A stretch of DNA of 64,000 nt from Candidatus Latescibacterota bacterium (GCA_965248435.1 OZ252100.1:4544001-4608000); one strand, 5' to 3'. Counted from the stretch's first letter, positions 3,050 to 22,222 are shown. Translations and numbers: made by a program. Notes: generated from the letters alone by a model not told the origin.

Positions 3050-3445
3050 CTCGGGGCCTCTTTAGAGAACTTTAGACCCTCCCCTTCACTAAGACGATTC
3101 CTGTCCATAACTTATTGAAAATATACCAGTTTTTTAAGTGTTGGGAAGGGGTAGATAGCGCGGTACGTCGGTCATACGACAGCTTGGAGGGAACAACCGT
3201 TAGCTACTCTTACTTTTTTGTATAGGCTAAATAAACAATATCTTATCTCTGGTTCTGGTTGCCTGGTCATTATCCTACAGTTCCTGGCAACAGCAAAAAT
3301 TTCAATGCTTGAATTCAAAGCCCCCTGAACATTATATTTGTAGTATACCGGCCTTGCCACACATCGAAGGACCTCCAAACGCATCGGGTGACCGGGCGGT
3401 TATTCGGGGATTCGGACGATCCTTATTTCTTCAAGGGGAAAGAGC

Positions 3446-4120
3446 ATGGCGATCATAACCCTTTCCAGGGAGTACGGTAGCGGCGGCCGTAAAGTGGGTG
3501 CCAAGGCCGCTGAGGCCCTTGGGTACTTCCTGTTGGACAAAGACCTGATCCGGGGGGTTGCACTGGAGGCAAACGTACCGGTCTCGGAGGTTGAAAGCTT
3601 CGACGAACAACCCGAGCATCCCATAGCCCGGGCCGTCCGAAAATTACTGACCCCGACCCACCCAGGAGTCGTAACCGGTTTCGAGGGAGATTTGTGGGGG
3701 ACGATGGTGGGTGTTCCGGGCTTGGGCGATGAGGGCGAACTGCAGGAGAACCTGGATGAGGATGCTTATGTAAGCATGACGCAAAAGGTGATGCTTCACA
3801 TTGCGAATAAGGGAAATGTAGTCATAACCGGACGAGGCAGCCAGGCGCTGTTTTCCGACCGAGCAGATGTCCTTCACGTTCGGATTGTGGCGAATGAGGC
3901 GTTCAAGATCCAATACCTCATGGAGGAAGATGGTCTCCTCCGGGACGACGCGATTAAGCGTATCCGAAAAGTGGACGACCAGCGTCGTCGCTACATCAAG
4001 CGACACTTCGGTATTGTGTGGGATAGGCCAGAATATTATCACATGATCATTAACACCGAAAAGACAGCGGTAGACGGGGCATCTCACCTAATCGTGCAGG
4101 CCGTACGTAACCTTCAGTGA
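3446..4120 (+). CDS. Cytidylate kinase-like family protein (Cytidylate_kin2)
   Basis: IITLSREYGSGG, VVITGRGSQ, D..RRRYIK and YHMIINT motifs. Confidence 0.85.
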   Translation: MAIITLSREYGSGGRKVGAKAAEALGYFLLDKDLIRGVALEANVPVSEVESFDEQPEHPIARAVRKLLTPTHPGVVTGFEGDLWGTMVGVPGLGDEGELQENLDEDAYVSMTQKVMLHIANKGNVVITGRGSQALFSDRADVLHVRIVANEAFKIQYLMEEDGLLRDDAIKRIRKVDDQRRRYIKRHFGIVWDRPEYYHMIINTEKTAVDGASHLIVQAVRNLQ

Positions 4121-4279
4121 GGCAAAGACAGTCTCTCGAGGGAACAATAGCAGTATCGGTGTTCATTTTCGAATAACACGAGCTTTAATTCAGTAGGCGA
4201 CCAGTCGATCTTTTGATGCGCAATTGCATCAATCTAATCGTCTCCTCTGGAGCTGCTGCTGAGTGAAGCCTTTGAAACC

Positions 4280-4330
4280 GTCGTCAATGTCTGCTGCAGA
4301 GTGGCCGCATTGACGATTTTCTTTTTTCTT
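4280..4330 (+). terminator. Intrinsic terminator in the leader of the catabolic cluster
   Basis: GTCGTCAATG(T-CTGCT gcag AGTGG-cc-G)CATTGACGAT followed by TTTCTTTTTTCTT, ending ~20 nt before ATG 4350. Confidence 0.7.
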
Positions 4331-4349
4331 CAACCCTGCGAATCTCCTC

Positions 4350-5057
4350 ATGAGAAATGCACCTCTCATAGGTATGACGACTCATCACCGTGATGATCAA
4401 CACGGCTTTACCCTACCCGACAAGTACGTCGATGCGCTGCGCCGAGCAGGAGGCATCCCCTTCTTGATTCCGCCGGGTGAAAGACGCCTGGACCAGTTGC
4501 TGGTCCTTTTGGACGGGATGGTTCTGTCCGGCGGCGGCGACATCGATCCCGCTTCGTACGGAGGCCAGGATCACGAAGCCCTATACAACGTCAGCCCGGA
4601 AAGGGATGAGACCGAACTCGCTATCATCTCAAAAATTGTTAGCACGCGAATGCCGCTGATGTTCATTTGTCGTGGGATGCAAATGCTCAATGTGGCACTT
4701 GGCGGCACGATCATCCCACATTTGCCGGATGTCGTAGGAGAAAAGGTTAGCCACCGTGCTCCTCCCCGTAGCCCGATTCCTCATTCCGTTCAAATTCATT
4801 CGGATTCTCGGTTGGCTGAAATTATGCAAGCCGACTCTGTAGAAACGGCATCGTGGCACCACCAGGCGATCGAAAAACTTGCACAGCCGTTAAGAGTCGT
4901 CGCCCACGCACCTGATGGAACGATCGAGGCGGTAGAGTTACCTGACCATCCGTGGCTAGTGGCTGTTCAGTGGCATCCGGAAGTCACAGCAGCCGATGAC
5001 CCGACTCAACAGCGACTCTTCGACAGCCTGGTAGAATTTGCTACGAACGAGAAATGA
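4350..5057 (+). CDS. Gamma-glutamyl-amide hydrolase, peptidase C26 (PuuD-like)
   Basis: LDGMVLSGGGDIDPASYG, ICRGMQMLNVALGG (catalytic Cys), HHQAI, VQWHPE. Confidence 0.92.
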   Translation: MRNAPLIGMTTHHRDDQHGFTLPDKYVDALRRAGGIPFLIPPGERRLDQLLVLLDGMVLSGGGDIDPASYGGQDHEALYNVSPERDETELAIISKIVSTRMPLMFICRGMQMLNVALGGTIIPHLPDVVGEKVSHRAPPRSPIPHSVQIHSDSRLAEIMQADSVETASWHHQAIEKLAQPLRVVAHAPDGTIEAVELPDHPWLVAVQWHPEVTAADDPTQQRLFDSLVEFATNEK

Positions 5058-5198
5058 TTCCAAGATTGAAGGAAGTGGGCAAGGGCGTTGTATTGCCCAA
5101 ACGACCAGAATCAGCTAGATTGATTGTAGTAACCATTTGATTTCAATCGTACTTGGGGAATCACAACTCAACTGATATCCCAAGGCGAAGGGTGAGCC

Positions 5199-6485
5199 AT
5201 GAAAGGATCTTACAGACGGATTCGCGCCCTCTTCCCGGATCAACTGGGTCTGGCACGAGGAAAGTACGTTCCCGCAGCCCTCGCCAAACAGGGGGTGCGG
5301 CAATGCATCACGCTGTTTGCCACGGCGCTGGACAGGACGTTGACACCTGCCCCAGGAGCCGGAATGTTGGAAGGTCTGCCGGATTGCGAGCTTACCTTTT
5401 CGGCGGAGGATGTCAAACCATCCTGGGAACAAGACACTGGCGTTGTGGTGGGCGATTTGCAATTCCAGGGTAAGCCGCTGGCCATCTCCTCGCGACTGGC
5501 GTTACGGAGAGCGGTCGACGATTGGCAGGCACTGGGTTACAAAGTGAAGATCGGCATTGAATTCGAAGCTTTCGTGCTTCAGCGTGATGGCAGCGGAGAG
5601 TGGACCGAATGGGACACACCCGGGGCTTACGTTTACGGCACGGGAACAGCCGTCGATCCGATCGGTCTGATGGACGAAATTATGCAAACTGCCGAGGCGT
5701 GCGAACTTCCCGTCGAGTCGGTAAATTCGGAGTACGAGACGCCCCAGTTCGAACTGACTTTGCGCTACGGTGATGCACTCGAAGCGGTTGACAATGCCTT
5801 TTTGTTCAAGTTGATGGCGAGAGAATTGGCGGCAAAGCACGGCCTGTTGCTCACGACCCTTGGCAAGCCCTTGGGAGATCGGGGCGGCAGCGGTCTTCAC
5901 ATCAATTTTTCGCTCGAGGACGGTAAGGGAAACAACCCGCTCTCTGATCCAAAATCTGCGGATGGTCTATCACAAATTGCTCACTACTGTATCGGTGGTC
6001 TTGTGGAGCATCACGAAGGCATGACGGCCTTGCTTGCGCCAACGGTCAACGCATACAAACGACTGTGTCCGGGACAGCTCGTTGGCTACTGGGCAAACTG
6101 GGGGTATGACCACCGCGTTGTGACAATCCGAGTGCCGGAAGAACGCGGTACTGCGACAAGACTTGAACATCGGATGGGTGACGGAGCTGCGAATCCGTAT
6201 CTCGCCACTGCCGCGGTGCTGCAGGCAGCGCGGTTGGGTGTGGCTAACGAGCTCCAGCCGTCGGCCGCCGAAGAACAGGACGGCCTTGAGAACGTGAGCA
6301 CAGATCGTCACGTTCCTGACGATCTTAACCTGGCGCTGGACGCACTCGAAAGAGACCGTGAATTGGTGGAGGCAATCGGTCAGGAGCTGGTCGATAACTT
6401 CGTCGCCAACAAGAGATTCGAGTGGGAAAAGTTCGCGGCCGCCGTAACGGATTGGGAACTGCGCTACTATCTGCCTTTCTATTAG
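5199..6485 (+). CDS. Glutamine synthetase-like gamma-glutamylamide ligase
   Basis: D..GLARGK, GIEFE, EYETPQFE, GSGLHINFS, NAYKRL, RLEHR..DGAANPYL; short N-terminus and adjacency to a C26 hydrolase favour a PuuA/IpuC/AtdA1-type ligase. Confidence 0.88.
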   Translation: MKGSYRRIRALFPDQLGLARGKYVPAALAKQGVRQCITLFATALDRTLTPAPGAGMLEGLPDCELTFSAEDVKPSWEQDTGVVVGDLQFQGKPLAISSRLALRRAVDDWQALGYKVKIGIEFEAFVLQRDGSGEWTEWDTPGAYVYGTGTAVDPIGLMDEIMQTAEACELPVESVNSEYETPQFELTLRYGDALEAVDNAFLFKLMARELAAKHGLLLTTLGKPLGDRGGSGLHINFSLEDGKGNNPLSDPKSADGLSQIAHYCIGGLVEHHEGMTALLAPTVNAYKRLCPGQLVGYWANWGYDHRVVTIRVPEERGTATRLEHRMGDGAANPYLATAAVLQAARLGVANELQPSAAEEQDGLENVSTDRHVPDDLNLALDALERDRELVEAIGQELVDNFVANKRFEWEKFAAAVTDWELRYYLPFY

Positions 6486-6493
6486 AAAGTGAT

Positions 6494-6559
6494 CCACGAC
6501 CGCAGACGGCGACATGAATGGCGTGATCATAGGGGTTAGCTGTCCGCGGTCTGTGGTCA
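6494..6559. repeat. Degenerate heptamer repeats in inverted arrangement
   Basis: CACGACCGCAGACGGCGAC ... TGTCCGCGGTCTGTGGTC; the same unit recurs at 61359-61390. Confidence 0.5.
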
Positions 6560-6587
6560 TGTATGCTGGTTTTGCACGACACAAGAG

Positions 6588-7865
6588 ATGCCTGCAGTGA
6601 AAACAACCCCTCCCAAATCCGACCTCGGCGATGCCTTCGCCGACATAACCGACCCTGACATCTACGTGCAGGGCGTTCCGCACGCCACATTCAAACGGTT
6701 GCGCCACGAAGACCCGGTAAGTTGGTGGGAGGAGAAAGAGGGTTCTGGATTCTGGGCCGTGACCCGCTATGAGGACATCATCACAGTGAGCCACGACCCG
6801 GGCCTGTTCTCTAGCGCCTCTGGCATTCGCCTAGAGGAAATGGATGAGGAAGAGCTGGAGGCGCGTTGTACGCTCATGGAGGTAGACCCACCCGAGCACT
6901 CGAGGTACCGGCGTCTGGTGCAGCCACAGTTCCTGCCCGATTCAGTAAATGCATATGAGGCTGCCATCCGTCTGCAGGCACGGGCGGTGATCGATGATGT
7001 GAAGGGAGAAAGTGAGTTCGACTTCGTGGAACGCGTTGCGACGCAACTCCCTATGCGGATGTTGGGGAAACTGTTAGGGGTCTCCGACAGCGACGGGGAT
7101 TGGCTCGTTAAAATGGGTGATGCGCTGATCGGCAACATGGATCCGGAGTTTACGACTCACCCTGTCGATCTGGTGGACACGGATGAATATCGACTGATGC
7201 CATTCCGAAGTCCCGTGAGCTACGAACTGTTCGAATACGCCGAGAACCAGGCCAGAGAACGCATGGCGAATCCTGCCGAAGATTTGATTACCCGCCTGCT
7301 CCAGCCGATGCGGGATGGGAATCGGCTTTCCGAAGAGGAGTTCAAAAACTTTTTCACCTTACTCGTCGCTGCAGGAAATGACACGACGCGCTACACAATG
7401 GCCGCGGGAATGCTGGCCCTGATCAACCACTCGGAACAGATGGCTGAGTTGAGGGACAACTTGACCTTGATGTCGTCCGCGACCGAAGAAATTCTACGCT
7501 GGGGCTCGGTGACGATGCATTTTCGTCGCACGGCGACACAGGACGCTGAACTGGGTCGCAGGCACATCAAGGCGGATGACAAGGTGGTAATCTGGTTCAT
7601 CTCCGGTGACTACGACGAGCAGCAGTTTCCCGATCCTTACCGGTTCGACATCAAGCGTTCGCCGAATAACCACGTCGCGTTCGGTCTGAGAGGTCCCCAC
7701 AAGTGTCTGGGTGAGCATCTGGCTCGCCTCGAAATTAAGGTGCTCTTCGAAGAGTTGCTACCTCTTCTGGCAGACATAAGACTGGGCGGCCCCATAGAGA
7801 GGCTGCGTTCAAATTTCATTTCGGGAATCAAGCACCTTCCCGTCAAAGCGACCTGGGTTCGATAA
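6588..7865 (+). CDS. Cytochrome P450
   Basis: I-helix AAGNDTT, K-helix EEILR, heme motif FGLRGPHKCLG. Confidence 0.96.
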   Translation: MPAVKTTPPKSDLGDAFADITDPDIYVQGVPHATFKRLRHEDPVSWWEEKEGSGFWAVTRYEDIITVSHDPGLFSSASGIRLEEMDEEELEARCTLMEVDPPEHSRYRRLVQPQFLPDSVNAYEAAIRLQARAVIDDVKGESEFDFVERVATQLPMRMLGKLLGVSDSDGDWLVKMGDALIGNMDPEFTTHPVDLVDTDEYRLMPFRSPVSYELFEYAENQARERMANPAEDLITRLLQPMRDGNRLSEEEFKNFFTLLVAAGNDTTRYTMAAGMLALINHSEQMAELRDNLTLMSSATEEILRWGSVTMHFRRTATQDAELGRRHIKADDKVVIWFISGDYDEQQFPDPYRFDIKRSPNNHVAFGLRGPHKCLGEHLARLEIKVLFEELLPLLADIRLGGPIERLRSNFISGIKHLPVKATWVR

Positions 7866-7884
7866 CCCAAGCGAGGGTGTGGAT

Positions 7885-8688
7885 ATGCCCATCAGTGGAT
7901 ACACGGCCCCCCTTTCGCCCGATGGAAGGGCCGGTATCGTGCCGCCTCCGCCGTGGCACTACTCGGGTGACTTCTTGATTGTCGAATACCGAACCGATCC
8001 GGAAGCCGTCACCGCCCTGTTGCCTCCGGAACTCCAACCGGCAGACGACCCGGGTGCGGTTGCCGCCATCTTCGCGGACTGGCAATCCTGCTCGGACGAT
8101 TTTCACGAACTGGTCGACCCGATTCAGTCTCAATACAAGGAGTTTTTCATCGTGGTGGGCTGTAAATACGACGGAAAACCGGCCAGCCGCTGTGTCTATA
8201 TCTGGGTCGATAAGGACTTCGCGATGTATCGGGGCTGGATTCAGGGTTTTCCGAAGAAACTGGGCTCCATCCACATGACACGCGTGTATCCAGTGGGGAA
8301 GGCCTTCCCGGCCATCGAGGCGGGTGCCCGTTTCGGTGCAACGTGCTGCGCGAACGACCGACAGATTGCACGCGCTGTGGTTACCCTTCAACGAATTTCT
8401 GAGACAGGCCCGACGGTCAATGATCCTCCGATGCACAATACCCGTCACTTCCCGGCCTACGACGGCCTGGTCCCCGACGTTTTCGAAATGGTCAAGGCCG
8501 GCGGGTTCGACCGCGAGGTCACGGAAATTTGGGAGGGGGATGCCGAGCTGACTTTTTACCCGGATACGATAGAGGACCTGAAGGCTATTGCTCCCGAAGA
8601 GATTATCATGGGCTATCGTTTTTCCTTTGCCTACACGGTGGAGGGTGGCGAGGTCCTTGCTCAACACGACAGGGTGGTGCATCAGTGA
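7885..8688 (+). CDS. Acetoacetate decarboxylase-like superfamily protein (MppR/Sbi00515-type)
   Basis: PPPPWHYSG, QYKEF, and RGWIQGFPKKLG with the Schiff-base Lys; ATG 7885 preferred over GTG 7879 by RBS spacing. Confidence 0.88.
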   Translation: MPISGYTAPLSPDGRAGIVPPPPWHYSGDFLIVEYRTDPEAVTALLPPELQPADDPGAVAAIFADWQSCSDDFHELVDPIQSQYKEFFIVVGCKYDGKPASRCVYIWVDKDFAMYRGWIQGFPKKLGSIHMTRVYPVGKAFPAIEAGARFGATCCANDRQIARAVVTLQRISETGPTVNDPPMHNTRHFPAYDGLVPDVFEMVKAGGFDREVTEIWEGDAELTFYPDTIEDLKAIAPEEIIMGYRFSFAYTVEGGEVLAQHDRVVHQ

Positions 8689-9548
8689 AACGTGCCCGGA
8701 TTCTCCATGGCGGGAAGCCAGTATGGGGCGTGGTCGAGGGCGGCGTGATCAAACTCGAGACCGGGGAGTCGGTTGACGAGGATAAGGCCAAGTATCGGCC
8801 GCCTGTGGCACCCTCGAAAATAATGGCCACTCACCTCTCTTACCGCAGCCGCTGTGTCGAATACAAGATGAAAAGCATTCCCCAGTACCCTTCTTACTTT
8901 ATGGTGCCGCCGACGGCCCTTTCTTACCATACCGCTCCGATCGCCCGACCTCGCGGATGCCACTTTCTGAATTACGAAGGGGAGGTCGCCGTCGTGATCG
9001 GAAAGCAATGCGTCAACGTGCCTGTCGAGGAGGCGCTGAGCTATGTAGCCGGGTACACGATCGCCAATGATTGGGGCGTTCACGACTTCCGGCACGCCGA
9101 CCGCGGTTCGATGTTTCGGGTGAAAGGCCAGGATGGGTTTTGCCCGGTCGGTCCGGTATTGGTGGACGCGGAAGATGTCGACCCCGATGACCTGACCCTG
9201 CGCACCACGGTAAACGGCGAGGTGGTCCAGGAGGGTCATACCGGCAGCGATCTCATCTTCTCTTTCGCTTACCAGATCGCGGACATCGCCCGACTGATCA
9301 CCCTGGAACCGGGTGACCTCTTGCTCACGGGCACTCCGGCCAACTCGAGGCCAGTAGAGATCGGGGATGTAGTTGCGGTGGAAGTCAGTGGAATCGGCCG
9401 CCTGGAGAATACGGTGGTCGAGCTGGACAGGGACCTGGTGCCGATTGGCGAGCAGCCTGCCGTTACCGGGGCCACACTTCACGTCGCACTGACCATACCT
9501 GAAGACGAAGCGGAACGACGTGCCTCTGAGTTTGGCGCGGATAACTAA
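8685..9548 (+). CDS. Fumarylacetoacetate hydrolase family protein (HpaG/HpcE-like)
   Basis: NYEGEVAVVIG, GYTIAND, VKGQDGFCPVGP, PGDLLLTGTP; GTG overlaps the upstream TGA (GTGA coupling). Confidence 0.9.
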   Translation: MKRARILHGGKPVWGVVEGGVIKLETGESVDEDKAKYRPPVAPSKIMATHLSYRSRCVEYKMKSIPQYPSYFMVPPTALSYHTAPIARPRGCHFLNYEGEVAVVIGKQCVNVPVEEALSYVAGYTIANDWGVHDFRHADRGSMFRVKGQDGFCPVGPVLVDAEDVDPDDLTLRTTVNGEVVQEGHTGSDLIFSFAYQIADIARLITLEPGDLLLTGTPANSRPVEIGDVVAVEVSGIGRLENTVVELDRDLVPIGEQPAVTGATLHVALTIPEDEAERRASEFGADN

Positions 9549-9564
9549 GAAGGAAGAACAGACG

Positions 9565-10482
9565 ATGAAACTCGTAACGGCTTTGCACCACGCTGCGCTA
9601 CGCGTGGCGGACCTGGCCGAGGCCTTTGAACGGTGGTCACACCTCTACGGCTTGAACGGAGCGTGCTTTGATGACCACGCCCGTCTGCGCTGCACACACG
9701 AAGACTTTTGTCTGTTGCTGCTTCCGTCACCAAAGGAACCAGGGCTCGAGTATGTCGCCTACGAGCTCATGCCGGGCCTGACCCTGGGCGAGGCTGCGGC
9801 GGAGCTCTCCAGGCGTGGGGTGGAGGCCCGAGAGATTGGGGTCCCTGTGCGGGACAAGGGTCTGCGGCTTTCTGATGCCGACGGAAATGGCATTGTTCTA
9901 CTGGAGCGCCAAACGTCCGAGGACACGCGCCCCGCTGAAATGATCTTAACTGGGGAGGTGCCCGGCTTCCACCCGCGTCGTTTGGGTCACGTGAACTACC
10001 TGACAGAGGACGTAAAACGGGCCGAAAAATGGTACGTGGAAAAACTCAGCTTCTCAGTAACAGACTGGATTGGCGATGAGGGATTGTGGCTGCACGTGAA
10101 CCCGATTCACCACGTAGCGGCCTTCTTGCAAAAGGGATTCAACCACATTCACCACATCGCCCTTGAGCTGGTCGACTGGGGCGAGATGCGCGTCGCGTTG
10201 GACCATCTGGCAAAAAACGAGAGAAGTGTAACGTGGGGACCGGGCCGTCATGGCATGGCCCGAAACATCTTCAGTTACTTGCGTATGCCCGAGGAAGACA
10301 TCTTTGTAGAACTATACTGTGACATGCAGCAGCTGGAGATTGACCACGTGCCGTTCCGGCATCCGGACGCGCCGCATTCATCGAATACCTGGGGCATCCT
10401 GCCGCCGCGTACCTATTTCCGTTTTGATGAAGAAGCGATCCAAATGGAACGGGACCAGACTTACGCATATGCCATGCCGTAG
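9565..10482 (+). CDS. Type I extradiol ring-cleavage dioxygenase (VOC family)
   Basis: Two VOC domains; metal ligands RLGHVN, HIHHIALE, FVELY; GPGRHG motif. Confidence 0.85.
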   Translation: MKLVTALHHAALRVADLAEAFERWSHLYGLNGACFDDHARLRCTHEDFCLLLLPSPKEPGLEYVAYELMPGLTLGEAAAELSRRGVEAREIGVPVRDKGLRLSDADGNGIVLLERQTSEDTRPAEMILTGEVPGFHPRRLGHVNYLTEDVKRAEKWYVEKLSFSVTDWIGDEGLWLHVNPIHHVAAFLQKGFNHIHHIALELVDWGEMRVALDHLAKNERSVTWGPGRHGMARNIFSYLRMPEEDIFVELYCDMQQLEIDHVPFRHPDAPHSSNTWGILPPRTYFRFDEEAIQMERDQTYAYAMP

Positions 10483-10704
10483 AAATGGGTTCTTCGCCGA
10501 GTCCGATCATACTTTTGCCGGCCATCGCTGTAGGACCGGTCTCCTGACCGGGAACTGGCTTCACATTCTTCTTCTAAGGCCAGAATGCAATGCCGGCAAT
10601 CTCAGCACCTTTAACCTCGGGCCCTAGTCAACGCAATCGCCCTGTTCCCCGACTGGAGTCGGATCCTACAGTTATCGGTGCCTATTCCCATGAGAGTGGT
10701 TTTG

Positions 10705-11013
10705 ATGCCAAAATTCGTCACAGTAGCTCAGAAATCTGAAATTTCCAGCGAATCGGGACGATGCGTCGAGGTTGAGGGCAAGCGCATCGCGCTGTTCAAT
10801 CTGGGGGGCGATTTCTACGCGATCGATGACTCGTGTCCCCACGAAGGCGGACCACTCAGCGAAGGTTTCATAGAGGGCGAGGAGGTGGAATGCCCCTGGC
10901 ACGGCGCCTGTTTCAACATTAAATCGGGGGCGGTTACTGCGCCGCCGGCCTTCGAGGACGTCACCAGATTCAACGTACGGGTCACAGAGAACGATATAGA
11001 AATCGAGGTCTAA
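10705..11013 (+). CDS. Rieske-type [2Fe-2S] ferredoxin
   Basis: CPHEGGPL...CPWHGACF. Confidence 0.92.
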   Translation: MPKFVTVAQKSEISSESGRCVEVEGKRIALFNLGGDFYAIDDSCPHEGGPLSEGFIEGEEVECPWHGACFNIKSGAVTAPPAFEDVTRFNVRVTENDIEIEV

Positions 11014-11055
11014 CCGGGTTCAGAAATAGATTCAGCTGTCTGGCTGGAAAATGGC

Positions 11056-11084
11056 TTGACAGCACGATCACAATTTCTTAATCT
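11056..11084 (+). promoter_or_regulatory. Sigma70 promoter of the aromatic supercluster leader
   Basis: TTGACA-17nt-TAATCT. Confidence 0.7.
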
Positions 11085-11114
11085 TTATTACAGAGCATCA
11101 AAAGGAGACTGAAA

Positions 11115-11219
11115 TTGAACTTGCAAACGGGCAGCACGCTCTTTTGGCGCAACGCATACGATGGGTCCTTCTGGTATTACCGGCAAGGCGCGCGGGGAGC
11201 TGTATGCCCACCTGGTTAA
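11115..11219 (+). CDS. Attenuator leader peptide, 34 aa, Phe/Trp/Tyr-rich
   Basis: AGGAGA RBS (11103-11108), TTG start; MNLQTGSTLFWRNAYDGSFWYYRQGARGAVCPPG; below the ORF-track length cutoff. Confidence 0.82.
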   Translation: MNLQTGSTLFWRNAYDGSFWYYRQGARGAVCPPG

Positions 11220-11274
11220 CGAGGTTCTGACCGACCGATTCAGGGGCCGTGGGCATACGCTCACGGCCCTTTTT
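11202..11274 (+). promoter_or_regulatory. Transcription attenuator (antiterminator plus terminator)
   Basis: GTATGCCCAC (11202-11211) is the exact complement of GTGGGCATAC (11249-11258), which is also part of the terminator GGGCCGTGGGC-atac-GCTCACGGCCC-TTTTT. Confidence 0.85.
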
Positions 11275-11331
11275 ACGTTCATCTAAAGGCCTTGACAATG
11301 TTTTCATTCGTTTTTTCCGTAATGCTAAGCC

Positions 11332-11360
11332 GTAGAGACGCCCCGCCGGGGCATCTCTAC
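11332..11360. repeat. GTAG-type REP-like palindrome
   Basis: GTAGAGACGCCCC-GCC-GGGGCATCTCTAC. Confidence 0.7.
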
Positions 11361-11386
11361 AGGACATTCAAGGATCGGGTTGGATC

Positions 11387-12856
11387 ATGATTTCCCTCGA
11401 AAACGTTCGCGGTTTGGCTGATCGCGGAGGGTTGGTTCCGGTGTCTCGTAAGATTCTGGCTGACACCGAGACGCCTGTCTCGGCCTACCTCAAGATTCGC
11501 TCCAAAAGCCCATACGCCTTCCTGTTCGAAAGCGTGGAGGGTGGCGAGAAGATCGGTCGCTACTCGTTCCTGGGCGTCGGACCCTTTCTCATCTTCAGGT
11601 CGCGGGGCGCCGAAATCCAGGTAGAGGATCTGGAAAAGGGCGAAAAGAAGACGTTCGAAGGAGATCCGATCTCCGAATTCCGAAAGCTGTTGAAGCGTTT
11701 TCGTTCGGTACACGTGGATGGCCTGCCGCGATTTACAGGCGGCGCCGTCGGCTACGTCGGCTACGATGCGATCCGCCTGATCGAGGACATTCCAGACCAG
11801 ACGGTGGATGACATGGAACTGGACGATATCCTCTTTCTGTTCTTCGATACGCTGCTGGCGTTCGACAACATCCAACACCAGATTCATCTCATTTCGAACG
11901 TTCACACGAGTGGAAATCTGGAGGCCAGCTACCGAAGAGCGGTGGACCGGATCATCTCTCTGGAGGAGACCTTGCAGCGTCCGTCCCTGGTTACGCTTTC
12001 TAAAGGGGGGAGCGCCTGCGATGTGCGGTCAAACACCGAACCTTCGGATTATCTGGACAAGGTTCGTCGTTGCAAGGAATATATCGTTTCGGGAGACGTG
12101 CTCCAGGTGGTGCTCTCTCAACGATTTGAAACAGAAGTAACGGTAGATTCCTTAGACGTCTACAGAATGCTTCGTGTCGTGAATCCTTCACCGTATATGT
12201 TTCACCTGGATCTCAAAGACCTGCAGATTGTCGGCACGTCTCCGGAGTTGCTCGTTCGCGTAGAGGAAGGGGTCGTTCAGGTGCGCCCTATCGCTGGAAC
12301 GCGATGGCGGGGTCAGACGGAGCAGGAAGATCGTCACCTGGCCGATGAGCTGCTCGCCGACGAAAAGGAGCGGGCCGAGCACATTATGCTTGTTGATCTC
12401 GGCCGAAATGACGTCGGACGTGTGTCAGAATTCAACACGGTTCGCGTGACCGATCAGATGGTGATCGAGCGCTATTCACACGTGATGCACATCGTTTCGA
12501 ACGTGATGGGTGAACTCCGTAAGGACGTGGATGCGCTCGACGCCCTTTTCGCGTGCTACCCCGCTGGCACGGTTTCAGGGGCCCCGAAGGTTCGTGCGAT
12601 GGAGATCATCGACGAGCTCGAGCCGACCCGGCGGGGACCGTATGCTGGTGCCGTGGGTTACATCGACTTTTCTGGAAACATGGACACCTGCATCGCGATT
12701 CGAACGATGATCCTGAAAAACGGCAAGGCATACGTACAGGCAGGAGGAGGTATCGTGTTCGATTCGGTCCCCGAAAACGAATACCAGGAAACTGTGAACA
12801 AATCCCGGGCACTATTCCGAGCGGTCGAGCTGGCGGAGCGCGGGGAACTCAGATGA
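11387..12856 (+). CDS. trpE: Anthranilate synthase component I
   Basis: [48 protein letters not shown]. Confidence 0.96.
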
Positions 12857-13416
12857 TCCTGATGATCGATAATTACGATTCCTTCACGTATAACCTGGTC
12901 CAGTATTTGGGAGAGCTGGGGGCCGAGTTGGAGGTCCATCGCAACGATCAGATCTCACTTCAGGAAGTGGAAAGCCTTGCGCCAGAAAAGGTTGTGATCT
13001 CGCCCGGCCCGTGTACGCCGAACGAGGCGGGAATCTCAGTGGAATTGATTCAGGTGTTTGCAGGCCGGTTTCCCATTCTGGGGGTCTGTTTGGGACACCA
13101 ATCGGTCGGTCAGGCCTTCGGGGCCGACATCGTCGGCGCACCCACAATTATGCACGGCAAGGTTTCGGAGATATACCACGACGACAGGACGGTTTTCAAG
13201 GGTCTTTCGCAGGGCTTCGTTGCCACCCGCTATCACTCCCTTGTCGTGGATAGAGAAACACTGCCGGACTGTATGGAGGTCTCGGCCGAAACGTCGGAGG
13301 GAACAATCATGGGCGTTCGACATAAAAAGCTGCCCGTCGAGGGCGTCCAGTTCCACCCAGAGTCGATCCTGACTGGTGAAGGGAAAAATCTCCTTCGAAA
13401 TTTCTTGGAGGCCTGA
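12853..13416 (+). CDS. trpG: Anthranilate synthase component II (glutamine amidotransferase)
   Basis: [36 protein letters not shown]; ATGA overlap with trpE. Confidence 0.95.
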
Positions 13417-13426
13417 GGGGATAGAA

Positions 13427-14440
13427 ATGGACATGCAGGCAGCAATTGCTAAAGTGATAGAGGGTGAGGATCTCACTCGCGGAGAAACCGTCGCAGTGAT
13501 GGACCAGATTATGTCCGGGAAGGCGACCGAGGCACAGATTGGTGCGTTTCTGGTAGCGCTCCGCCTTAAAGGGGAGACGGTGGATGAGATCGTTGGCGCT
13601 GTTGAAGTGATGCGTGAAAAAGCAACTCCAATAGAGACAAGTCACGACATCGTCGTCGATACCTGCGGGACGGGTGGCGACCGTTCAGGTACATTCAATA
13701 TCTCCACAACGGCCGCCTTTGTGGTTTCCGGCTCAGGATTATGCGTAGCGAAACACGGAAACCGCGCGGCATCGAGCCAATGCGGAAGTGCCGACGTGTT
13801 GAAGGCGCTCGGTGTGAACATCGAAGCAACACCGGAGAAGGTTGGCGCGTGCCTGGACAAGGTAGGTATCGGGTTCTTGTTCGCGCCCGCGCTGCACGGA
13901 GCCATGAAGCACGCCATCGGCCCGCGCCGTGAGATCGGCATTCGCGTGATCTTCAATGTCCTCGGGCCGCTAACGAATCCTGCGGGCGCACGTCGGCAGC
14001 TGATTGGGGTTTACGACAGTGATTTGACCGAGACGCTGGCCGAGGTGCTTGGGCAGCTCGGATCTGAGCGGGCCCTCGTGGTACACGGTCTGGATGGGTT
14101 GGACGAGATTACGCTGACGGGTCCAAGCCGAGTATCTGAGCTAAAAGACGGAGACGTAAAGAGCTACGAGGTTGCGCCGGAAGATTTCGGGCTTTCGCGG
14201 AGCAGCGCGGAAGATCTAAAAGGGGGAGATGCCGAGACGAACGCCGATATCCTCCGGTCCGTGCTGGTCGGTCAGAAAGGTCCGACACGGGATGTCGTCC
14301 TCCTGAATGCTGCCGCGGCCCTCGTCGCGGGCGGGAGAGCAGAGGATATCTCAACGGGGGTCGAGATTGCTGCGGGAGCGATCGATTCTGGAATGGCTAT
14401 GCAGAAGTTGGAAGGCCTGATTGCGGAAAGTAACACTTAA
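13427..14440 (+). CDS. trpD: Anthranilate phosphoribosyltransferase
   Basis: [30 protein letters not shown]. Confidence 0.96.
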
Positions 14441-14442
14441 TG

Positions 14443-14620
14443 CCGTGGATCGTGGATCGACGTTCGTGGATCGTGAAAAGACCGGGTACCGGGTATCATA
14501 AGAGATCGGCGGTGTAGGGGCGACGCACGCGTCGCCCGGGGGAAAGCAAAATACGGGTACCGGGGTTCGGGTAAGAGATCGCGGATCGCGGATTTCGAAT
14601 TGGGGATTGCGGAATCGAAT
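14443..14620. repeat. Composite intergenic repeat: heptamer arrays plus GTAG REP
   Basis: GTGGATC, CCGGGTA and ATTGCGG-type units; GTAGGGGCGACGCACGCGTCGCCC at 14514-14537; similar layout at 28861-29016. Confidence 0.7.
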
Positions 14621-14793
14621 GCAGAACAGATGGATCACTTTATCGACAACCCCCCTGAATCCCTGAGTGCGGAGGCTGTAAGTTCGTTTTGGATCGCGCG
14701 TCCGTATATCGAAGGGTCGGGCATAGCGAGCATTAGTCGTCAACTTCCGTGGATCGCGGGGGATGGCGGGCAAATTCCAGGAAGATTGATAAC

Positions 14794-15585
14794 GTGGGTG
14801 GAATTCTAGACGAAATTATCGAGTACAAGCGAGCGTTCGTCTCGGAGGCCCGCAAGCAGGTGTCGATCGAGGAAATGGCACAAACGGCCGCGAGTCGCCT
14901 GCCAGGTTCTTCTTTCGCGGGGAGCCTTACGGCCAGTGAGGACGTTGCAGTGATCGCCGAGGTGAAGAAGGCGTCGCCCTCCCGGGGGGTTATTCGGGCC
15001 GATTTCGATCCGGTGGCGATCGCGAAGACCTATGCGTCACAGGGGGCGTCGGCCATTTCTGTCCTAACAGACGAAAAGTACTTCCAAGGATCGGCGGGCG
15101 ACCTGAGCCTTGTGCGCAAAGCGGTCAATATTCCAGTGCTTCGTAAGGATTTCGTCGTTGACGCCTACCAGGTTTACGAGGCGAGGCATTTGGGTGCCTC
15201 TGCTGTCCTGCTGATCGTCGCCGCCCTATCGGCCGGCGAACTAGGGAATTTCATCGATCTGTGCAGGGAAGTCCGGATTGATGCCCTGGTCGAGGTGCAC
15301 ACCGAAGCGGAACTCGAGGTCGCTCTCAGGGCGGAGGCAAAGATCATCGGGATCAACAACAGAGATCTCAGGACCTTTGAGACCGATCTGCAGACGACGA
15401 TGACGGTCGTAAAAAAGATTCCCAGCGGGACGATTGTGGTGAGCGAAAGTGGGATCTTTACCAGGGATGACGTGCTTAAGGTGCAGGATGTCGGCGTGGA
15501 TGCGGTGCTGATTGGAGAGGGTTTGATGCGGGAGGCCGATATGGGTGCGAAACTTCGTGAATTGCTGGGACGGCAGGCCGCGTGA
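14794..15585 (+). CDS. trpC: Indole-3-glycerol phosphate synthase
   Basis: ILDEII, IAEVKKASPS, SVLTDEKYFQG, LRKDF, GINNRDL, SESGI; GTG 14794 is the likely start. Confidence 0.95.
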   Translation: MGGILDEIIEYKRAFVSEARKQVSIEEMAQTAASRLPGSSFAGSLTASEDVAVIAEVKKASPSRGVIRADFDPVAIAKTYASQGASAISVLTDEKYFQGSAGDLSLVRKAVNIPVLRKDFVVDAYQVYEARHLGASAVLLIVAALSAGELGNFIDLCREVRIDALVEVHTEAELEVALRAEAKIIGINNRDLRTFETDLQTTMTVVKKIPSGTIVVSESGIFTRDDVLKVQDVGVDAVLIGEGLMREADMGAKLRELLGRQAA

Positions 15586-15592
15586 GGACGGT

Positions 15593-16213
15593 ATGGTTCA
15601 GGTGAAGATCTGCGGGATTACGAATCCGGAAGACGCCCTGTTCGCGGCTGAGCTTGGGGCTGACGCACTTGGGCTTATCTTCTATAACGAGAGCCCTCGC
15701 TATGTCAGCCCCGAATGCGCTGCTGAGATTGTGGCGGGATTGCCTCCGTTTGTTACCCCTGTAGGGGTTTTCGTGAATGAGGTTAAGGAGCGGACCGAAG
15801 AGATTGTGCGCCTCGTCGGCCTCAGGGCCATTCAGCTCCACGGCGATGAACCGCCCGAGGCCTGCAGCGGATACTCGATTCCTGTCATCCGGGCAGTACG
15901 CGTGGGTGACGAGCTCGATCTAGATGAGCTGAGCCGATACCCCGTTGAGACATTTCTGCTGGACACAGCCAGGGCGGGCTTGTATGGCGGCACCGGCGAA
16001 CCGTTCGACTGGTCAGTTGCGCGAAATGCTTCTTCGGCCAGGAGGATTATCCTGTCGGGTGGAATCGATCCTGAAAACGTTGCAGCTGCCATCGGGGCCG
16101 TCCAACCCTACGGGGTTGACAGCAGCAGTGGGGTGGAGGCTGCACCGGGACGCAAGGATCACCAGAAGCTGACGGCCTTCTTCGAGGCCGTTCGGTCTGT
16201 CGATGGTCGCTGA
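15593..16213 (+). CDS. trpF: Phosphoribosylanthranilate isomerase
   Basis: VKICGIT, QLHGDE, GGTGEPFDW, GVDSSSGVE. Confidence 0.95.
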   Translation: MVQVKICGITNPEDALFAAELGADALGLIFYNESPRYVSPECAAEIVAGLPPFVTPVGVFVNEVKERTEEIVRLVGLRAIQLHGDEPPEACSGYSIPVIRAVRVGDELDLDELSRYPVETFLLDTARAGLYGGTGEPFDWSVARNASSARRIILSGGIDPENVAAAIGAVQPYGVDSSSGVEAAPGRKDHQKLTAFFEAVRSVDGR

Positions 16214-16225
16214 TTCTTGAGACGA

Positions 16226-17503
16226 ATGGGGAACACCCAAGTGGATATCATAGAAGACCTGGAATTCAGGGGATACGTTTCCCAGAATTCCGACCCCGAG
16301 GGGTTGAAGCAGAGGCTCTCCACTGAACCCGTGACGCTCTACGCAGGTTTCGATCCGACGGCGGACAGTCTGCACGTGGGGAGCCTGATCCCCATCCTGG
16401 GGCTCCGTCGCTTCCAGATGGCGGGACATAGACCGATTGCACTCGTCGGCGGGGGAACGGGTCTGATCGGTGATCCGAGCGGCAGGGCCTCCGAGCGACA
16501 GTTGAACACCAAAGAAGTCGTGGACGGGTTCGTGGAACAGCAGAAGAGACAGCTGGAACAGTTTCTGGATTTTGAATCGAAGGGCAACGCGGCAAGCGTC
16601 GTAAACAACTTCACGTGGCTCTCCGAGCTCGGGATGATCGAATTCCTGAGAGATATCGGGAAGCATTTTCCGCTGGGATACATGCTTGCCAAGGAGTCCG
16701 TGGCGTCACGACTCGAGGCGGGCATCTCGTTTACGGAATTCAGCTACATGGTCTTTCAGGCGTGTGATTTCCTGGAACTGTTTTCCAGGTTCGACTGCGA
16801 GTTGCAGATCGGCGGAAGCGACCAGTGGGGAAACATTACGGCTGGGATCGAGCTCATCCGGCGGAAACTCGGGAAGCAGGCCTACGGGCTGACCTTTCCC
16901 CTGCTCGAAAAGGCGGATGGGAGCAAGTTCGGAAAGACGGAGTCGGATAACGTCTGGCTTGATCCAGTGAAATCGAGCCCATACCAGTTTTATCAATTTT
17001 GGATCAATACAGACGATCGCGATGTTATCAAGTTCTTGAAGATCTTCACGTTCCTCTCGAAAAAGGAGATCCTGGATGTCGAGGCAGAGGTCCTGGATCG
17101 ACCTGAAAAGCGGACGGCGCAACGCGTTCTGGCGGAGAGCGTGACGGAGTTGGTGCACGGGGCGGGGGCTACTCAGCGGGCAGCGCACATATCGCAGTCC
17201 CTTTTTTATGGCGACCTGGATAAGCTTTCAGCAGAGGAGATCGAGGAGGGGTTCAGGGATGTGCCCTCCTTCGCGCTCCAGAAGATGGACGGCATTGGGC
17301 TGATCGATCTCCTGGTGACGGCCGGCGTTTCGCCATCCAAGCGTCAGGCAAGAGAGGATGCCGGAAATGGTGCGATCACGATAAACGGGGAACGCTGCAC
17401 AGACCTCAATCGCCAGTTCGTCCCCTCAGATCGTCTGGGCGGAACCTATCTGGTCGTCCGGAGAGGGAAACAGAAATATCACCTCGTCCGGTGGGATGTT
17501 TGA
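16226..17503 (+). CDS. tyrS: Tyrosine--tRNA ligase
   Basis: YAGFDPTADSLHVG, QIGGSDQWGNI, KFGKT, C-terminal S4 domain; start could be 16217, 16226 or 16241. Confidence 0.95.
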   Translation: MGNTQVDIIEDLEFRGYVSQNSDPEGLKQRLSTEPVTLYAGFDPTADSLHVGSLIPILGLRRFQMAGHRPIALVGGGTGLIGDPSGRASERQLNTKEVVDGFVEQQKRQLEQFLDFESKGNAASVVNNFTWLSELGMIEFLRDIGKHFPLGYMLAKESVASRLEAGISFTEFSYMVFQACDFLELFSRFDCELQIGGSDQWGNITAGIELIRRKLGKQAYGLTFPLLEKADGSKFGKTESDNVWLDPVKSSPYQFYQFWINTDDRDVIKFLKIFTFLSKKEILDVEAEVLDRPEKRTAQRVLAESVTELVHGAGATQRAAHISQSLFYGDLDKLSAEEIEEGFRDVPSFALQKMDGIGLIDLLVTAGVSPSKRQAREDAGNGAITINGERCTDLNRQFVPSDRLGGTYLVVRRGKQKYHLVRWDV

Positions 17504-17546
17504 ATAGCGGATTTTGGATTGCGGAATGAAAGGGAAGTGATTCGAC

Positions 17547-18761
17547 GTGTCGTCTGTAAAACACACAACAACGCTGCCTGACGAACAGGGTCGTTTTGGG
17601 CCATATGGTGGCCGGTTTGTGCCGGAGACGCTGATGTGTCTCCTGGAGGATCTGGAAGCGGCCTACGGGGAAGCCAAGGATGACCCAGAGTTCAAGCGCG
17701 AGCTAGACACCTACCTTCGCGAGTACGTCGGTCGGCCAACACCGCTCTACTTTGCGGAAAGGTTGACCAAAGCGCTGGGAGGTGCGAAGATCTACCTGAA
17801 GCGTGAGGACCTGGCTCATACCGGGGCCCACAAAATCAACAATACGATGGGACAGATCCTGCTTGCCAGGCGGATGGGCAAGAAGCGAATCATCGCGGAG
17901 ACTGGCGCGGGTCAGCACGGGGTAGCCACGGCGACAGTAGCGGCCATGTTCGGTCTGGAATGCGAGATCTACATGGGGACGGAGGACATGGACCGGCAGG
18001 CGCTCAACGTGTTCAGGATGCGCCTTCTGGGGTCCAAAGTGACCGGGGTCACCTCAGGAAGCAGAACACTCAAGGATGCGATCAACGAAGCGATCCGGGA
18101 CTGGGTGACCAACGTCGAAACGACCTTTTACATTTTTGGTTCTGTGCTCGGTCCGCATCCCTATCCTATGATCGTCAGGGACTTTCAGCGTGTAATTGGC
18201 GTGGAGACCAGGGAGCAGATTCTAAAAGCGGAAGGGAGGCTCCCAGACTGCCTGATCGCCTGCGTGGGGGGTGGAAGCAACGCGATTGGGCTGTTTCACG
18301 AGTTTCTGGATGACAAGGAAGTGAAGATGATCGGTGTGGAAGCGGGCGGGCACGGAATTTCGACGGGGGAACACGCGGCGCGGTTTCAGGGCGGGGATCT
18401 GGGCGTCCTTCACGGGGCGCGTATCTATCTTCTGCAGGACAAAAACGGTCAAATCGCCCTTACCCACTCTGTTTCGGCGGGGCTGGACTACTCGGGCGTC
18501 GGTCCGGAACACTGTTACCTCAGAGATGAGGGACGGATCGATTATACCTACGCGACGGACGAGGAGGCCCTCGAAGGTTTTGAGAGGCTAAGTCAAACGG
18601 AAGGAATTCTGCCTGCACTCGAGAGCGCACACGCGATCGCAGAGGTCAAAAAGGTCGCTCCCCGCATGGAGAAGGACAGCATCATCATCGTCAATCTTTC
18701 AGGAAGGGGAGACAAAGACGTTCAGCAGGCTGCAAAGTTCTTAGGGGGGATGGACGAATAG
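17547..18761 (+). CDS. trpB: Tryptophan synthase beta chain
   Basis: [41 protein letters not shown]. Confidence 0.97.
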
Positions 18762-18763
18762 AT

Positions 18764-19847: not shown

Positions 19848-19879
19848 AACCCTGGCCGGCAGGTAGGAGAGTTAGAGGG

Positions 19880-20908: not shown

Positions 20909-20927
20909 ATCCGATAAGGCGTGGTTT

Positions 20928-21092
20928 AATTGCGGATTGCGGATCTGGGATTGCGGAATGGGAGGGAACGTATCTCGTATCAGGTATCTCGGCGTTAATG
21001 ACCTTCTTAGTACAACAGCGCGATTCGATTCTATCCTATTCGGAGAGCAAGATGTATCCGACGAGATACACTTCACGAGATACGAGATACGC
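20928..21092. repeat. Heptamer arrays with inverted arms
   Basis: ATTGCGG-type units, then CGTATCT units (~20969-20991) facing AGATACG units (~21061-21091). Confidence 0.7.
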
Positions 21093-21106
21093 TCGAAGAG
21101 TCGACT

Positions 21107-22219: not shown

Positions 22220-22222
22220 AGA

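Follow-up and report, generated by a model that had tools for sequence, protein, structure and literature searches.

The DNA analysed here, called the window below, is a stretch of 64,000 nucleotides from Candidatus Latescibacterota bacterium (GCA_965248435.1 OZ252100.1:4544001-4608000), with positions counted from its first letter. A Pfam profile search and reading of open reading frames (ORFs) revealed seven intact genes at 4350-11013, all on the plus strand, which encode a C26 hydrolase, a glutamine synthetase (GS)-like ligase, a cytochrome P450, an acetoacetate decarboxylase (ADC)-like protein, an FAH-family enzyme, an extradiol dioxygenase and a Rieske ferredoxin. We propose, with moderate confidence, that they represent a hybrid between gamma-glutamylation of the Puu/Ipu kind and the homoprotocatechuate (Hpa) meta-cleavage pathway, which would degrade a gamma-glutamyl-protected arylethylamine to pyruvate, gamma-aminobutyrate (GABA) and glutamate. 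The most likely substrates, which we infer together with the order of the steps, are tyramine, dopamine and phenylethylamine. The seven genes were most likely acquired horizontally as a trimmed copy of a widespread catabolic cluster.

The seven genes and their recurrence in other genomes

The grouping of the seven genes is far beyond chance, and the gene set recurs in many genomes. Presence of each gene was scored by tblastn (E of at most 1e-8, query cover of at least 50%) in loci that comprise the best 80 matches of each of two scans of one-genome-per-species contigs, one with the ADC protein (496 relatives) and one with the ligase (351 relatives); taxon names are those of the record titles. 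The best 80 ADC relatives are 73-85% identical and fall in Chloroflexota, Deinococcales, Solirubrobacterales and other Actinomycetota, Gemmatimonadota and Acidobacteriota, to which the best 80 ligase relatives add Acidimicrobiia, Nitriliruptoraceae, Microthrixaceae and Gammaproteobacteria. Among the 54 ADC-anchored loci that extend for 8 kb or more on either side, the FAH gene is present in all 54, the VOC dioxygenase in 51, the ligase in 46, the C26 hydrolase in 41, an HpaB-like hydroxylase in 37, a class III (GABA-transaminase-like) aminotransferase in 34, the P450 in 33 and an aldehyde dehydrogenase in 27. In all 74 loci with room for it, the FAH gene lies within 450 bp downstream of the ADC gene. 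Similarly, when the ligase-anchored loci with full flanks are restricted to those with a P450 of at least 50% identity (n=24), ADC, FAH, aldehyde dehydrogenase and extradiol dioxygenase genes are each found in 22.

We defined a core set of 37 distinct loci that hold a ligase and a P450, each of at least 50% identity, plus the ADC gene, after eight duplicate contigs had been dropped. These loci span Chloroflexota, Deinococcales, Acidobacteriota, Gemmatimonadota, Actinomycetota and Gammaproteobacteria. All 37 carry the FAH gene and 35 an extradiol dioxygenase (VOC in 18, LigB-type in 17, both in none), followed by an HpaE-like aldehyde dehydrogenase (33/37), an amide hydrolase (32/37), a MarR regulator (27/37), an APC permease (20/37) and an aromatic-amino-acid decarboxylase-like gene (12/37). 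Gene order and strand vary by lineage, and the P450 gene lies directly 3' of the ligase gene in most homologous loci.

Table 1. Genes of the block, with proposed roles and Pfam matches.
Gene product	Position	Strand	Pfam match
C26 (class I glutamine-amidotransferase-fold) hydrolase, PuuD-like	4350-5057	+	PF07722 Peptidase_C26, 203.9 bits
Glutamine-synthetase-like ligase, proposed gamma-glutamyl-amine synthetase	5199-6485	+	PF00120 Gln-synt_C, 282.9 bits
Cytochrome P450, CYP125/124/268-like, proposed gamma-glutamyl-amide hydroxylase	6588-7865	+	PF00067 p450, 92.3 bits
ADC-like (MppR/Sbi00515-type) enzyme, proposed hydratase-aldolase of the meta-cleavage branch	7885-8688	+	PF06314 ADC, 201.3 bits
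FAH-family enzyme, HpaG/HpcE-like, proposed isomerase/decarboxylase	8685-9548	+	PF01557 FAA_hydrolase, 205.6 bits
Two-domain VOC-type extradiol dioxygenase	9565-10482	+	PF00903 Glyoxalase/dioxygenase, 36.2 bits (cut-off 20.6)
Rieske-type [2Fe-2S] ferredoxin, 102 residues, inferred P450 electron donor	10705-11013	+	PF00355 Rieske, 69.7 bits

The ADC frame opens at 7879, of which the ATG at 7885 is the preferred start. The FAH gene begins at GTG 8685, which overlaps the ADC stop codon TGA at 8686-8688 in a GTGA coupling, and the ORF from 8529 is an upstream extension of the FAH frame instead of its start. The dioxygenase most likely starts at ATG 9565, preceded by an AGGAAG motif, and the ferredoxin most likely at ATG 10705. 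A preliminary description of this DNA had listed the same co-directional gene set with the same GTGA coupling of the FAH gene, and both are borne out. It had also reported the lack of a reductase, a semialdehyde dehydrogenase and a transporter, which is true of the whole 64-kb window, whose sole flavoprotein reductase-like gene (29095-30507, minus strand) sits among pyruvate dehydrogenase E1/E2 genes. Within the block itself, the profile scan found no regulator, aldehyde dehydrogenase, oxidase, reductase or permease.

All seven products score under every NCBIfam equivalog cut-off, and for this reason none of them can be named by orthology. Their best matches and conserved residues are given below, where a residue counts as conserved when at least 97% of the homologues (32 to 123, depending on the gene) retain it, and the roles given to the residues are those that we take over from the literature of each family. 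The best NCBIfam match of the C26 hydrolase is the PuuD-type gamma-glutamyl-GABA hydrolase NF008471 (116.3 bits, cut-off 266), and its triad of C107, H209 and E211 is kept in at least 97% of 32 homologues. The ligase falls below the cut-offs of the type III GS TIGR03105 (250.6 bits, cut-off 469.6), the PuuA-type gamma-glutamylputrescine synthetase GGputSyn (NF045547; 224.3 bits, cut-off 650) and the GlnA equivalog (217.6 bits, cut-off 429), and Pfam gave no match to a Gln-synt_N domain in it. Its best PDB matches are type I GS and glutamate-methylamine ligase at ~180 bits, and a set of Glu, His and Arg residues, which from GS motifs we take to bind metal and phosphate, is invariant in 123 homologues.

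The P450 resembles a reconstruction of the CYP125 ancestor (CYP125MRCA, 378.9 bits), CYP268A2 (265.4), CYP125 (248.9) and CYP124, a likeness measured in PDB bit scores, the criterion for a CYP family being more than 40% identity. The heme-thiolate C373, the I-helix residues T266/T267 and the EXXR residues E301 and R304 are invariant in 84 homologues. The ADC-like protein scores 249.4 bits against the MppR equivalog TIGR04460 (cut-off 380) and matches MppR (PDB 4jm3, 232.8 bits) and 4zbo (203.6 bits); its lysine pair K124/K125, invariant in 106 homologues, presumably falls at the lysine position of Sbi00515, according to the alignment offset to 4zbo. The FAH-family protein is closest to the HpaG C-terminal equivalog (HpaG/HpcE, TIGR02303; 212.3 bits, cut-off 276.4) and to the structure of HpaG (PDB 1gtt, 225 bits), with E98, E100 and D129 conserved.

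The best equivalog of the dioxygenase is HpaD (TIGR02295; 106.5 bits, cut-off 321.4), followed by catechol 2,3-dioxygenase (74.9 bits, cut-off 320.2), and its PDB matches are 3b59, catechol 2,3-dioxygenases and homoprotocatechuate 2,3-dioxygenase (HPCD, E ~5e-8). Of 66 homologues, at least 97% retain residues H142, H183, H196/H197, H229, Y238 and E249, and the His, Tyr and Glu positions pair with those of catechol 2,3-dioxygenase 3hpv and of 3b59, so that each presumably plays the role of its counterpart in XylE and HPCD. By these sequence features the enzyme is a type I (VOC) extradiol dioxygenase with two modules, the C-terminal of which holds the His/His/Glu iron site along with the catalytic His and Tyr residues. 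The ferredoxin matches HcaC/AndAb-type ferredoxins, below cut-off.

A proposed route for capped arylethylamines

The strongest evidence for the ring-cleavage step comes from the replacement of one enzyme type by another. A LigB-family dioxygenase takes the place of the VOC enzyme in 22 loci, and no locus holds both. The best PDB match of the LigB-type protein is 8iq8, a 3,4-dihydroxyphenylacetate 2,3-dioxygenase, and PGAP gives the same name to the copy of Streptomyces canus. The presence of two unrelated folds in one slot indicates that extradiol cleavage of an aromatic ring is essential to the pathway. Intradiol cleavage was rejected, as the Novosphingobium dioxygenase falls in the Pfam LigB extradiol family and that of S. 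lunaelactis is 55% identical to the LigB-type protein of locus L146, whose family Pfam confirms. As a side observation, PGAP calls both of these proteins (L170 15794-16651 and L172 17391-18365) 'catechol 1,2-dioxygenase'; they are 54-55% identical to this L146 protein and are probably misnamed.

The amide hydrolase, the hydroxylase and the electron donor vary as well. The hydrolase of the core loci is of the C26 type in 21, a beta-lactamase-fold serine hydrolase in 10, both in one and neither in five. HpaB is found in none of the 44 loci with the ADC gene and a window-type P450 (at least 50% identity), compared to 21 of the 23 loci with only a distant P450. This exclusion, in a pattern inflated by lineage effects, is consistent with the window-type P450 making the catechol. 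The Rieske ferredoxin occurs in the window and beside the ligase/P450 pair in two further loci (L006 and L019); the Novosphingobium cluster has a Fer2 [2Fe-2S] protein, and the S. canus cluster a 62-residue Fer4-type ferredoxin together with an FAD reductase.

Genes beside the homologous clusters bear on the substrate. In locus L003, whose ligase, P450, ADC and FAH proteins are 73-82% identical to those of the window, the linked decarboxylase matches PDB 7xin ('DOPA decarboxylase') with 732.6 bits and then plant and animal tyrosine, DOPA and tryptophan decarboxylases. The decarboxylase of the Deinococcales clusters is of an unrelated type and matches 4obu and 7xin with ~218 bits. The linked aldehyde dehydrogenase is best matched by HpaE (545 bits, cut-off 638) and the accessory hydroxylase by HpaB-1 (421.6 bits, cut-off 480), the aminotransferase falls among GABA-transaminase families, and the regulators belong to the MarR, GntR or TetR families. 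As a side observation, two Chloroflexota clusters carry, in addition to the C26 gene, an extra class I amidotransferase-like gene (NF004212, 179.3 bits of 309; L012 13974-14684 and L045 15495-16202) 3' of the GABA-transaminase-like gene.

An arylethylamine that passes capped through an Hpa-like route would yield two aldehydes to be oxidised, a ring-fission semialdehyde and a gamma-glutamyl-aminoaldehyde released by the aldolase step. This expectation was then checked in plasmid-borne clusters of cultured strains, and both Streptomyces clusters have two aldehyde dehydrogenase genes. On the plasmid of S. canus NBC_00633, the enzyme beside the dioxygenase is best matched by HpaE (517.6 bits) and the one beside the C26 hydrolase by PuuC (568.2 bits); the corresponding values on pSLUN1 of S. 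lunaelactis strain MM109 are 518.6 and 554.3 bits, both PuuC-like enzymes lying below the PuuC cut-off of 850. The megaplasmid cluster of Novosphingobium sp. EMRT-2 likewise has two aldehyde dehydrogenases. Neither the L146 cluster, which was scanned in full, nor any of the three plasmid clusters with annotation contains an HpaH- or HpaI-type gene, which leaves the ADC-like enzyme as the only hydratase/aldolase candidate in the clusters read. The S. canus cluster (L171 1687-5507) lies between integrase and transposase genes on a linear plasmid that is mobilisable, a setting that fits the patchy spread of the cluster across phyla.

These neighbourhoods also bear on the preliminary description, which had named as one refuting condition that the two halves of the block never occur together elsewhere; the neighbourhood counts place them together in many genomes. 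Its suggestion of two fused modules found no support, as the genes go together as a unit and form a single island in the window. Its alternative term, partial, fits the window copy, since homologous clusters carry dehydrogenases, a permease, a regulator and, on one Streptomyces plasmid, a ferredoxin reductase. The aryl- or arylalkyl-amine that it had named as substrate gains support from the decarboxylase homologues, from the HpaE-, PuuC-, HpaB- and GABA-transaminase-like neighbours and from the swap of VOC for LigB.

We propose that the GS-like ligase first joins the gamma-carboxyl of glutamate to the amine at the expense of ATP. The P450, served by a small ferredoxin (Rieske-type here), would then hydroxylate the ring of the gamma-glutamyl amide to a catechol, a task that might fall to the HpaB-like flavin monooxygenase in clusters without a window-type P450. 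The extradiol dioxygenase (VOC here, LigB-type elsewhere) would open the ring, and the glutamyl cap would prevent cyclisation of the amine with the aldehyde or keto groups so formed; free DOPA and dopamine cleavage products undergo such intramolecular Schiff-base cyclisation in betalain and 4-alkylproline chemistry. An HpaE-like dehydrogenase, whose gene is not in the window, would oxidise the semialdehyde, and the HpaG-like FAH enzyme would isomerise and decarboxylate the product. The ADC-like enzyme, via its Schiff-base lysine, could hydrate and cleave the resulting 2-oxo-enoate to pyruvate and gamma-glutamyl-4-aminobutanal, in place of both HpaH and HpaI. Eventually, a PuuC-like dehydrogenase, also not in the window, and the PuuD-like C26 hydrolase would yield glutamate and GABA, the latter being taken on by the GABA-transaminase-like enzyme in some clusters. 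Removal of the cap at an earlier step is an alternative order.

The carbon bookkeeping follows the homoprotocatechuate pathway, with -CH2CH2NH-Glu replacing -CH2COOH. The best named match of every downstream enzyme is an Hpa enzyme (FAH to HpaG, aldehyde dehydrogenase to HpaE, VOC to HpaD, hydroxylase to HpaB), which points to an Hpa-like ring route. GABA is a plausible end product because the best match of the C26 hydrolase is a gamma-glutamyl-GABA hydrolase and GABA-transaminase-like genes recur. More tentatively than the pathway as a whole, we suggest that bacteria from soil and sea, in six or more phyla, have in common an unrecognised route for the use of catecholamine- or trace-amine-type compounds, that the cap is carried through ring fission, that ADC-like proteins act as hydratase-aldolases, that the P450 stands in for HpaB and that a Rieske protein is the donor in some clusters.

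Known bacterial routes for tyramine, dopamine, phenylethylamine and L-DOPA deaminate first, by amine oxidase or transaminase, and then enter the Hpa pathway. In the literature searched, which covered few subscription journals, no bacterial catabolic route via gamma-glutamyl arylethylamines turned up, and gamma-glutamyltyramine was met only as a precursor of methanofuran/methylofuran and in animal metabolomics; nor did the search return a paper describing PDB 7XIN. We found no description of the cluster, which is widespread and combines known pathway logics. Plants, animals and the decay of protein supply tyramine, dopamine, phenylethylamine and L-DOPA to soils and guts. If the proposed route is true, nitrogen would be kept until after ring fission, the cap would avert a cyclisation that otherwise gives betalamic-acid-like heterocycles, and the way in which many uncultured lineages, such as Solirubrobacterales, Acidimicrobiia, Deinococcales and Chloroflexota, could use these amines would be explained. 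Large, strongly conserved 'acetoacetate decarboxylase family' and 'glutamine synthetase family' groups would also gain a function, the former as physiological hydratase-aldolases of a meta-cleavage pathway. A ligase that makes aromatic gamma-glutamyl amides, and a P450 that acts on such amides, would be of practical interest. The model is directly testable, as the cluster resides on plasmids of cultured Streptomyces and Novosphingobium strains.

Alternative readings and the setting of the island

Several points weigh against this proposal. All the enzymes lie below their equivalog cut-offs, and the substrate is a predicted one. The nearest solved relatives of the P450, namely CYP125, CYP124, CYP268 and CYP153, presumably hydroxylate the ends of aliphatic chains and not rings. 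If the L003-type decarboxylase is specific for DOPA, the resulting dopamine needs no hydroxylation and the P450 is left without a role. The HpaB-type clusters keep a distant ligase/P450 pair plus a short-chain dehydrogenase/reductase (SDR) and an F420-type LLM oxidoreductase that the model does not explain, and two of the 37 core loci (L003 and L100) have no dioxygenase within 10 kb. The loci themselves are mostly metagenome-assembled genomes, many of them closely related and some truncated at a contig end, and form neither an independent nor a random sample. As for the window's own genome, which is 97.5% complete, one protein query each found neither HpaB nor a decarboxylase of the aromatic-amino-acid type. 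The island has no aldehyde dehydrogenase, and the best match in the genome to the cluster-type enzyme is only 35% identical. Finally, an island without reductase, permease and regulator may be an incomplete copy or one that depends on host enzymes. The 35% match itself (G000:C1:241709-243118, L081) contains two in-frame TAA stops and may be a broken gene or two genes.

It is conceivable, though rather unlikely, that the island of the window is a remnant with partial function or none, irrespective of the role of complete clusters in other genomes. Both aldehyde dehydrogenase types, the ferredoxin reductase, the permease and the regulator are missing here and linked in fuller clusters, and the distant 35% match in the genome points the same way. 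By contrast, the seven frames are open, none of them has lost its invariant residues (judged on 32 to 123 homologues), and the GTGA translational coupling is preserved. Moreover, the clusters of the nearest relatives (L001 and L002) also lack a linked aldehyde dehydrogenase, which argues that the form without this gene is itself conserved; such a form may work differently or use host enzymes.

An unlikely alternative is that the same chemistry acts on another capped compound, such as the alpha-amine of tyrosine or L-DOPA, benzylamine, or an arylamine of the aniline or aminophenol type; the tyrosine/DOPA variant would end in gamma-Glu-Glu and so release two glutamates and no GABA. The sequences do not reveal the substrate, a decarboxylase is not linked in 25 of the 37 core loci, and the permeases found in the clusters belong to the APC 'amino acid permease' family. 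Glutamylation of arylamines by GS-like ligases is known from the 1-naphthylamine pathway (PMC11335346). However, the ligase of the window is no closer to PDB 8wwu (120.2 bits), which we only guess to be an arylamine ligase, than to true GS, and no Rieske oxygenase subunits were found in the window or in the homologous clusters read. In addition, two unrelated types of aromatic-amino-acid decarboxylase-like gene are embedded in 12 of the 37 core clusters, GABA-transaminase-like genes recur, and the PuuC- and PuuD-like neighbours suit an omega-amino aldehyde or acid product.

Less probable still is an Ipu- or Pip-like route for an aliphatic or alicyclic amine, in which the P450 would act on an alkyl carbon while the ADC, FAH and dioxygenase proteins would serve a non-aromatic product or a second substrate. 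The solved P450s nearest to that of the window are presumably chain-end hydroxylases, the ligase-P450-hydrolase architecture is that of the isopropylamine and piperidine pathways, and some clusters contain SDR and F420-type oxidoreductases. However, this route hardly explains why 35 of the 37 core loci contain a dioxygenase, drawn from two interchangeable, unrelated folds, a finding that is difficult to account for unless ring opening is essential, and the HpaB-, HpaE-, HpaG- and aromatic-amino-acid decarboxylase-like neighbours speak against it as well. The least probable reading is a biosynthetic cassette, in which extradiol cleavage of a DOPA or dopamine unit would lead to a betalamic-acid- or 4-alkylproline-like heterocycle with glutamyl as a transient protecting group: although VOC-type DOPA dioxygenases and F420-dependent LLM reductases are used in such routes, LLM genes occur in some clusters and MppR, the closest named ADC relative, is biosynthetic, the cap would block the very cyclisation that is needed, the loci read hold no nonribosomal peptide synthetase, polyketide synthase, tailoring or export genes, and the partners are catabolic (two aldehyde dehydrogenase types, GABA-transaminase-like enzymes, uptake permeases, and MarR/GntR/TetR regulators).

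Comparison with a genome of the same genus (G001) defined the borders of the island to within tens of bases, at ~4100-11048. This segment of 6.95 kb holds exactly the seven genes, including the ferredoxin. On its left, window 3434-4099, a cytidylate-kinase-like (cmk-like) gene of 81% protein identity, corresponds to L168 1337-674 of G001, and on its right, window 11049-11333, the trpE leader, to L168 424-137; the cmk-like gene and the leader are ~250 bp apart in G001, compared to 6.95 kb in the window, as an alignment also shows. The block is either an insertion here or a clean loss in G001. The ADC gene, single-copy in the window's own genome, was found in none of 30 relatives that were searched, of which one shares the genus, 17 the family and 12 the order, and this absence favours gain over loss. 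No flanking direct repeats were found at the borders, where only short internal pairs at chance level occur, and no integrase or transposase gene lies adjacent.

A link to the trp operon downstream was rejected because the same site of G001 lacks the island, and for the same reason the adjacency to an aromatic amino acid supra-operon looks incidental. The promoter scan of 3900-11450 returned no sigma-70-like site, and of the two terminator-like hairpins in this interval, the strong one sits in the trpE leader, outside the island. An Rfam scan of 3-21 kb detected no family at gathering score, and no known riboswitch or T-box precedes the island or trpE. The sequencing runs listed are four of DNA type, all from one study, and none of RNA.

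Beyond the island, a 34-codon leader ORF (11115-11219) lies 5' of trpE, with a TTG start and an AGGAG motif upstream. It reads (M)NLQTGSTLFWRNAYDGSFWYYRQGARGAVCPPG, is rich in Trp, Tyr and Phe, and is followed by a GC-rich hairpin of 13 pairs with a T run (11242-11271). The two together look like a leader-peptide attenuator of the supra-operon. The leader region is 76% identical in G001, and Rfam gave no match to it in the window. The long supra-operon (11387-28862) encloses two tRNA synthetase genes and comprises trpE, trpG, trpD, trpC, trpF, tyrS (16217-17503; TIGR00234, 410.9 bits), trpB, trpA, DAHP synthase and prephenate dehydrogenase, and then EPSP synthase, shikimate dehydrogenase, a UbiE-type methyltransferase, argS, shikimate kinase and dehydroquinate synthase. 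A second, distant FAH-family gene (37983-39032, minus strand; Pfam 39.9 bits), 27 kb downstream of the island, adjoins 2-oxoacid:ferredoxin oxidoreductase genes, and no link to the island was seen.

Comparison with known systems

The Puu pathway of E. coli consists of the PuuA ligase, the PuuB oxidase, the PuuC aldehyde dehydrogenase and the PuuD C26 hydrolase. As in Puu, a GS-like ligase would cap the amine with glutamate and a C26 hydrolase, with PuuD as its best match, would remove the cap; a PuuC-like aldehyde dehydrogenase adjoins the C26 gene in fuller clusters, and the predicted gamma-glutamyl-4-aminobutanal and gamma-glutamyl-GABA are Puu intermediates. However, neither the island nor the window contains a PuuB-type oxidase or a PuuC dehydrogenase, and the ligase (224.3 of 650 bits) and the hydrolase (116.3 of 266 bits) score far under the PuuA and PuuD cut-offs. 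Moreover, the capped amine of the cluster is proposed to be aromatic, and its C4 aldehyde would arise by ring fission and not by amine oxidation. The isopropylamine pathway employs the IpuC ligase, the IpuD P450 and the IpuF hydrolase. The similarity of the cluster to the Ipu and Pip pathways is one of architecture only, namely a ligase gene followed by that of a P450, the presumed amide oxidiser, plus a gamma-glutamyl hydrolase and a small ferredoxin, whereas Ipu and Pip act on small aliphatic or alicyclic amines without ring-cleavage, FAH or ADC-like enzymes.

The cluster also shares features with the Atd/Tdn (aniline) and Npa (1-naphthylamine; PMC11335346) systems, where GS-like glutamylation precedes oxygenation, a GATase-fold hydrolase is present and meta-cleavage follows. 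In those systems a multicomponent Rieske dioxygenase removes the nitrogen and frees the catechol. By contrast, neither the window nor the homologous clusters read contain large or small subunits of a Rieske oxygenase, the only such protein in the window being the 102-residue ferredoxin. The hydroxylating role would fall to the P450, and the side-chain nitrogen is proposed to stay capped through ring fission.

With the Hpa pathway (PMC12718150), the clusters have in common an HpaG-like FAH enzyme, an HpaD-like dioxygenase (both fold types), an HpaE-like aldehyde dehydrogenase and an HpaB-like hydroxylase. They also have MarR-family regulators, as Hpa has HpaR. They differ in that their enzymes fall below the equivalog cut-offs, HpaF, HpaH and HpaI are absent from those read, and a ligase, a P450 and an amide hydrolase are added, with an ADC-like enzyme that would replace hydratase and aldolase; the 64-kb window contains none of HpaE, HpaH and HpaI. 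The FAH enzyme here has a single domain compared to the two-domain HpaG of E. coli, and the side chain is proposed to be amido-ethyl and not carboxymethyl.

MppR, of enduracididine biosynthesis, and Sbi00515 are ADC-like Schiff-base aldolase-dehydratases. The ADC-like protein of the window belongs to the same fold family, with 4jm3 and 4zbo as its closest solved structures and an invariant K124/K125 pair. Nevertheless, it lies below the MppR cut-off, has no MppP or MppQ partners and is always accompanied by an HpaG-like FAH enzyme (74/74 loci), and the direction proposed for it is cleavage instead of condensation or cyclisation. A similar linkage of an ADC-like gene to a catechol-type dioxygenase is found in Sso1221/Sso1222 of Saccharolobus solfataricus (PMC7820114); the authors of that study proposed these proteins as the aldolase of the meta pathway, which is a published parallel for the ADC-like step.

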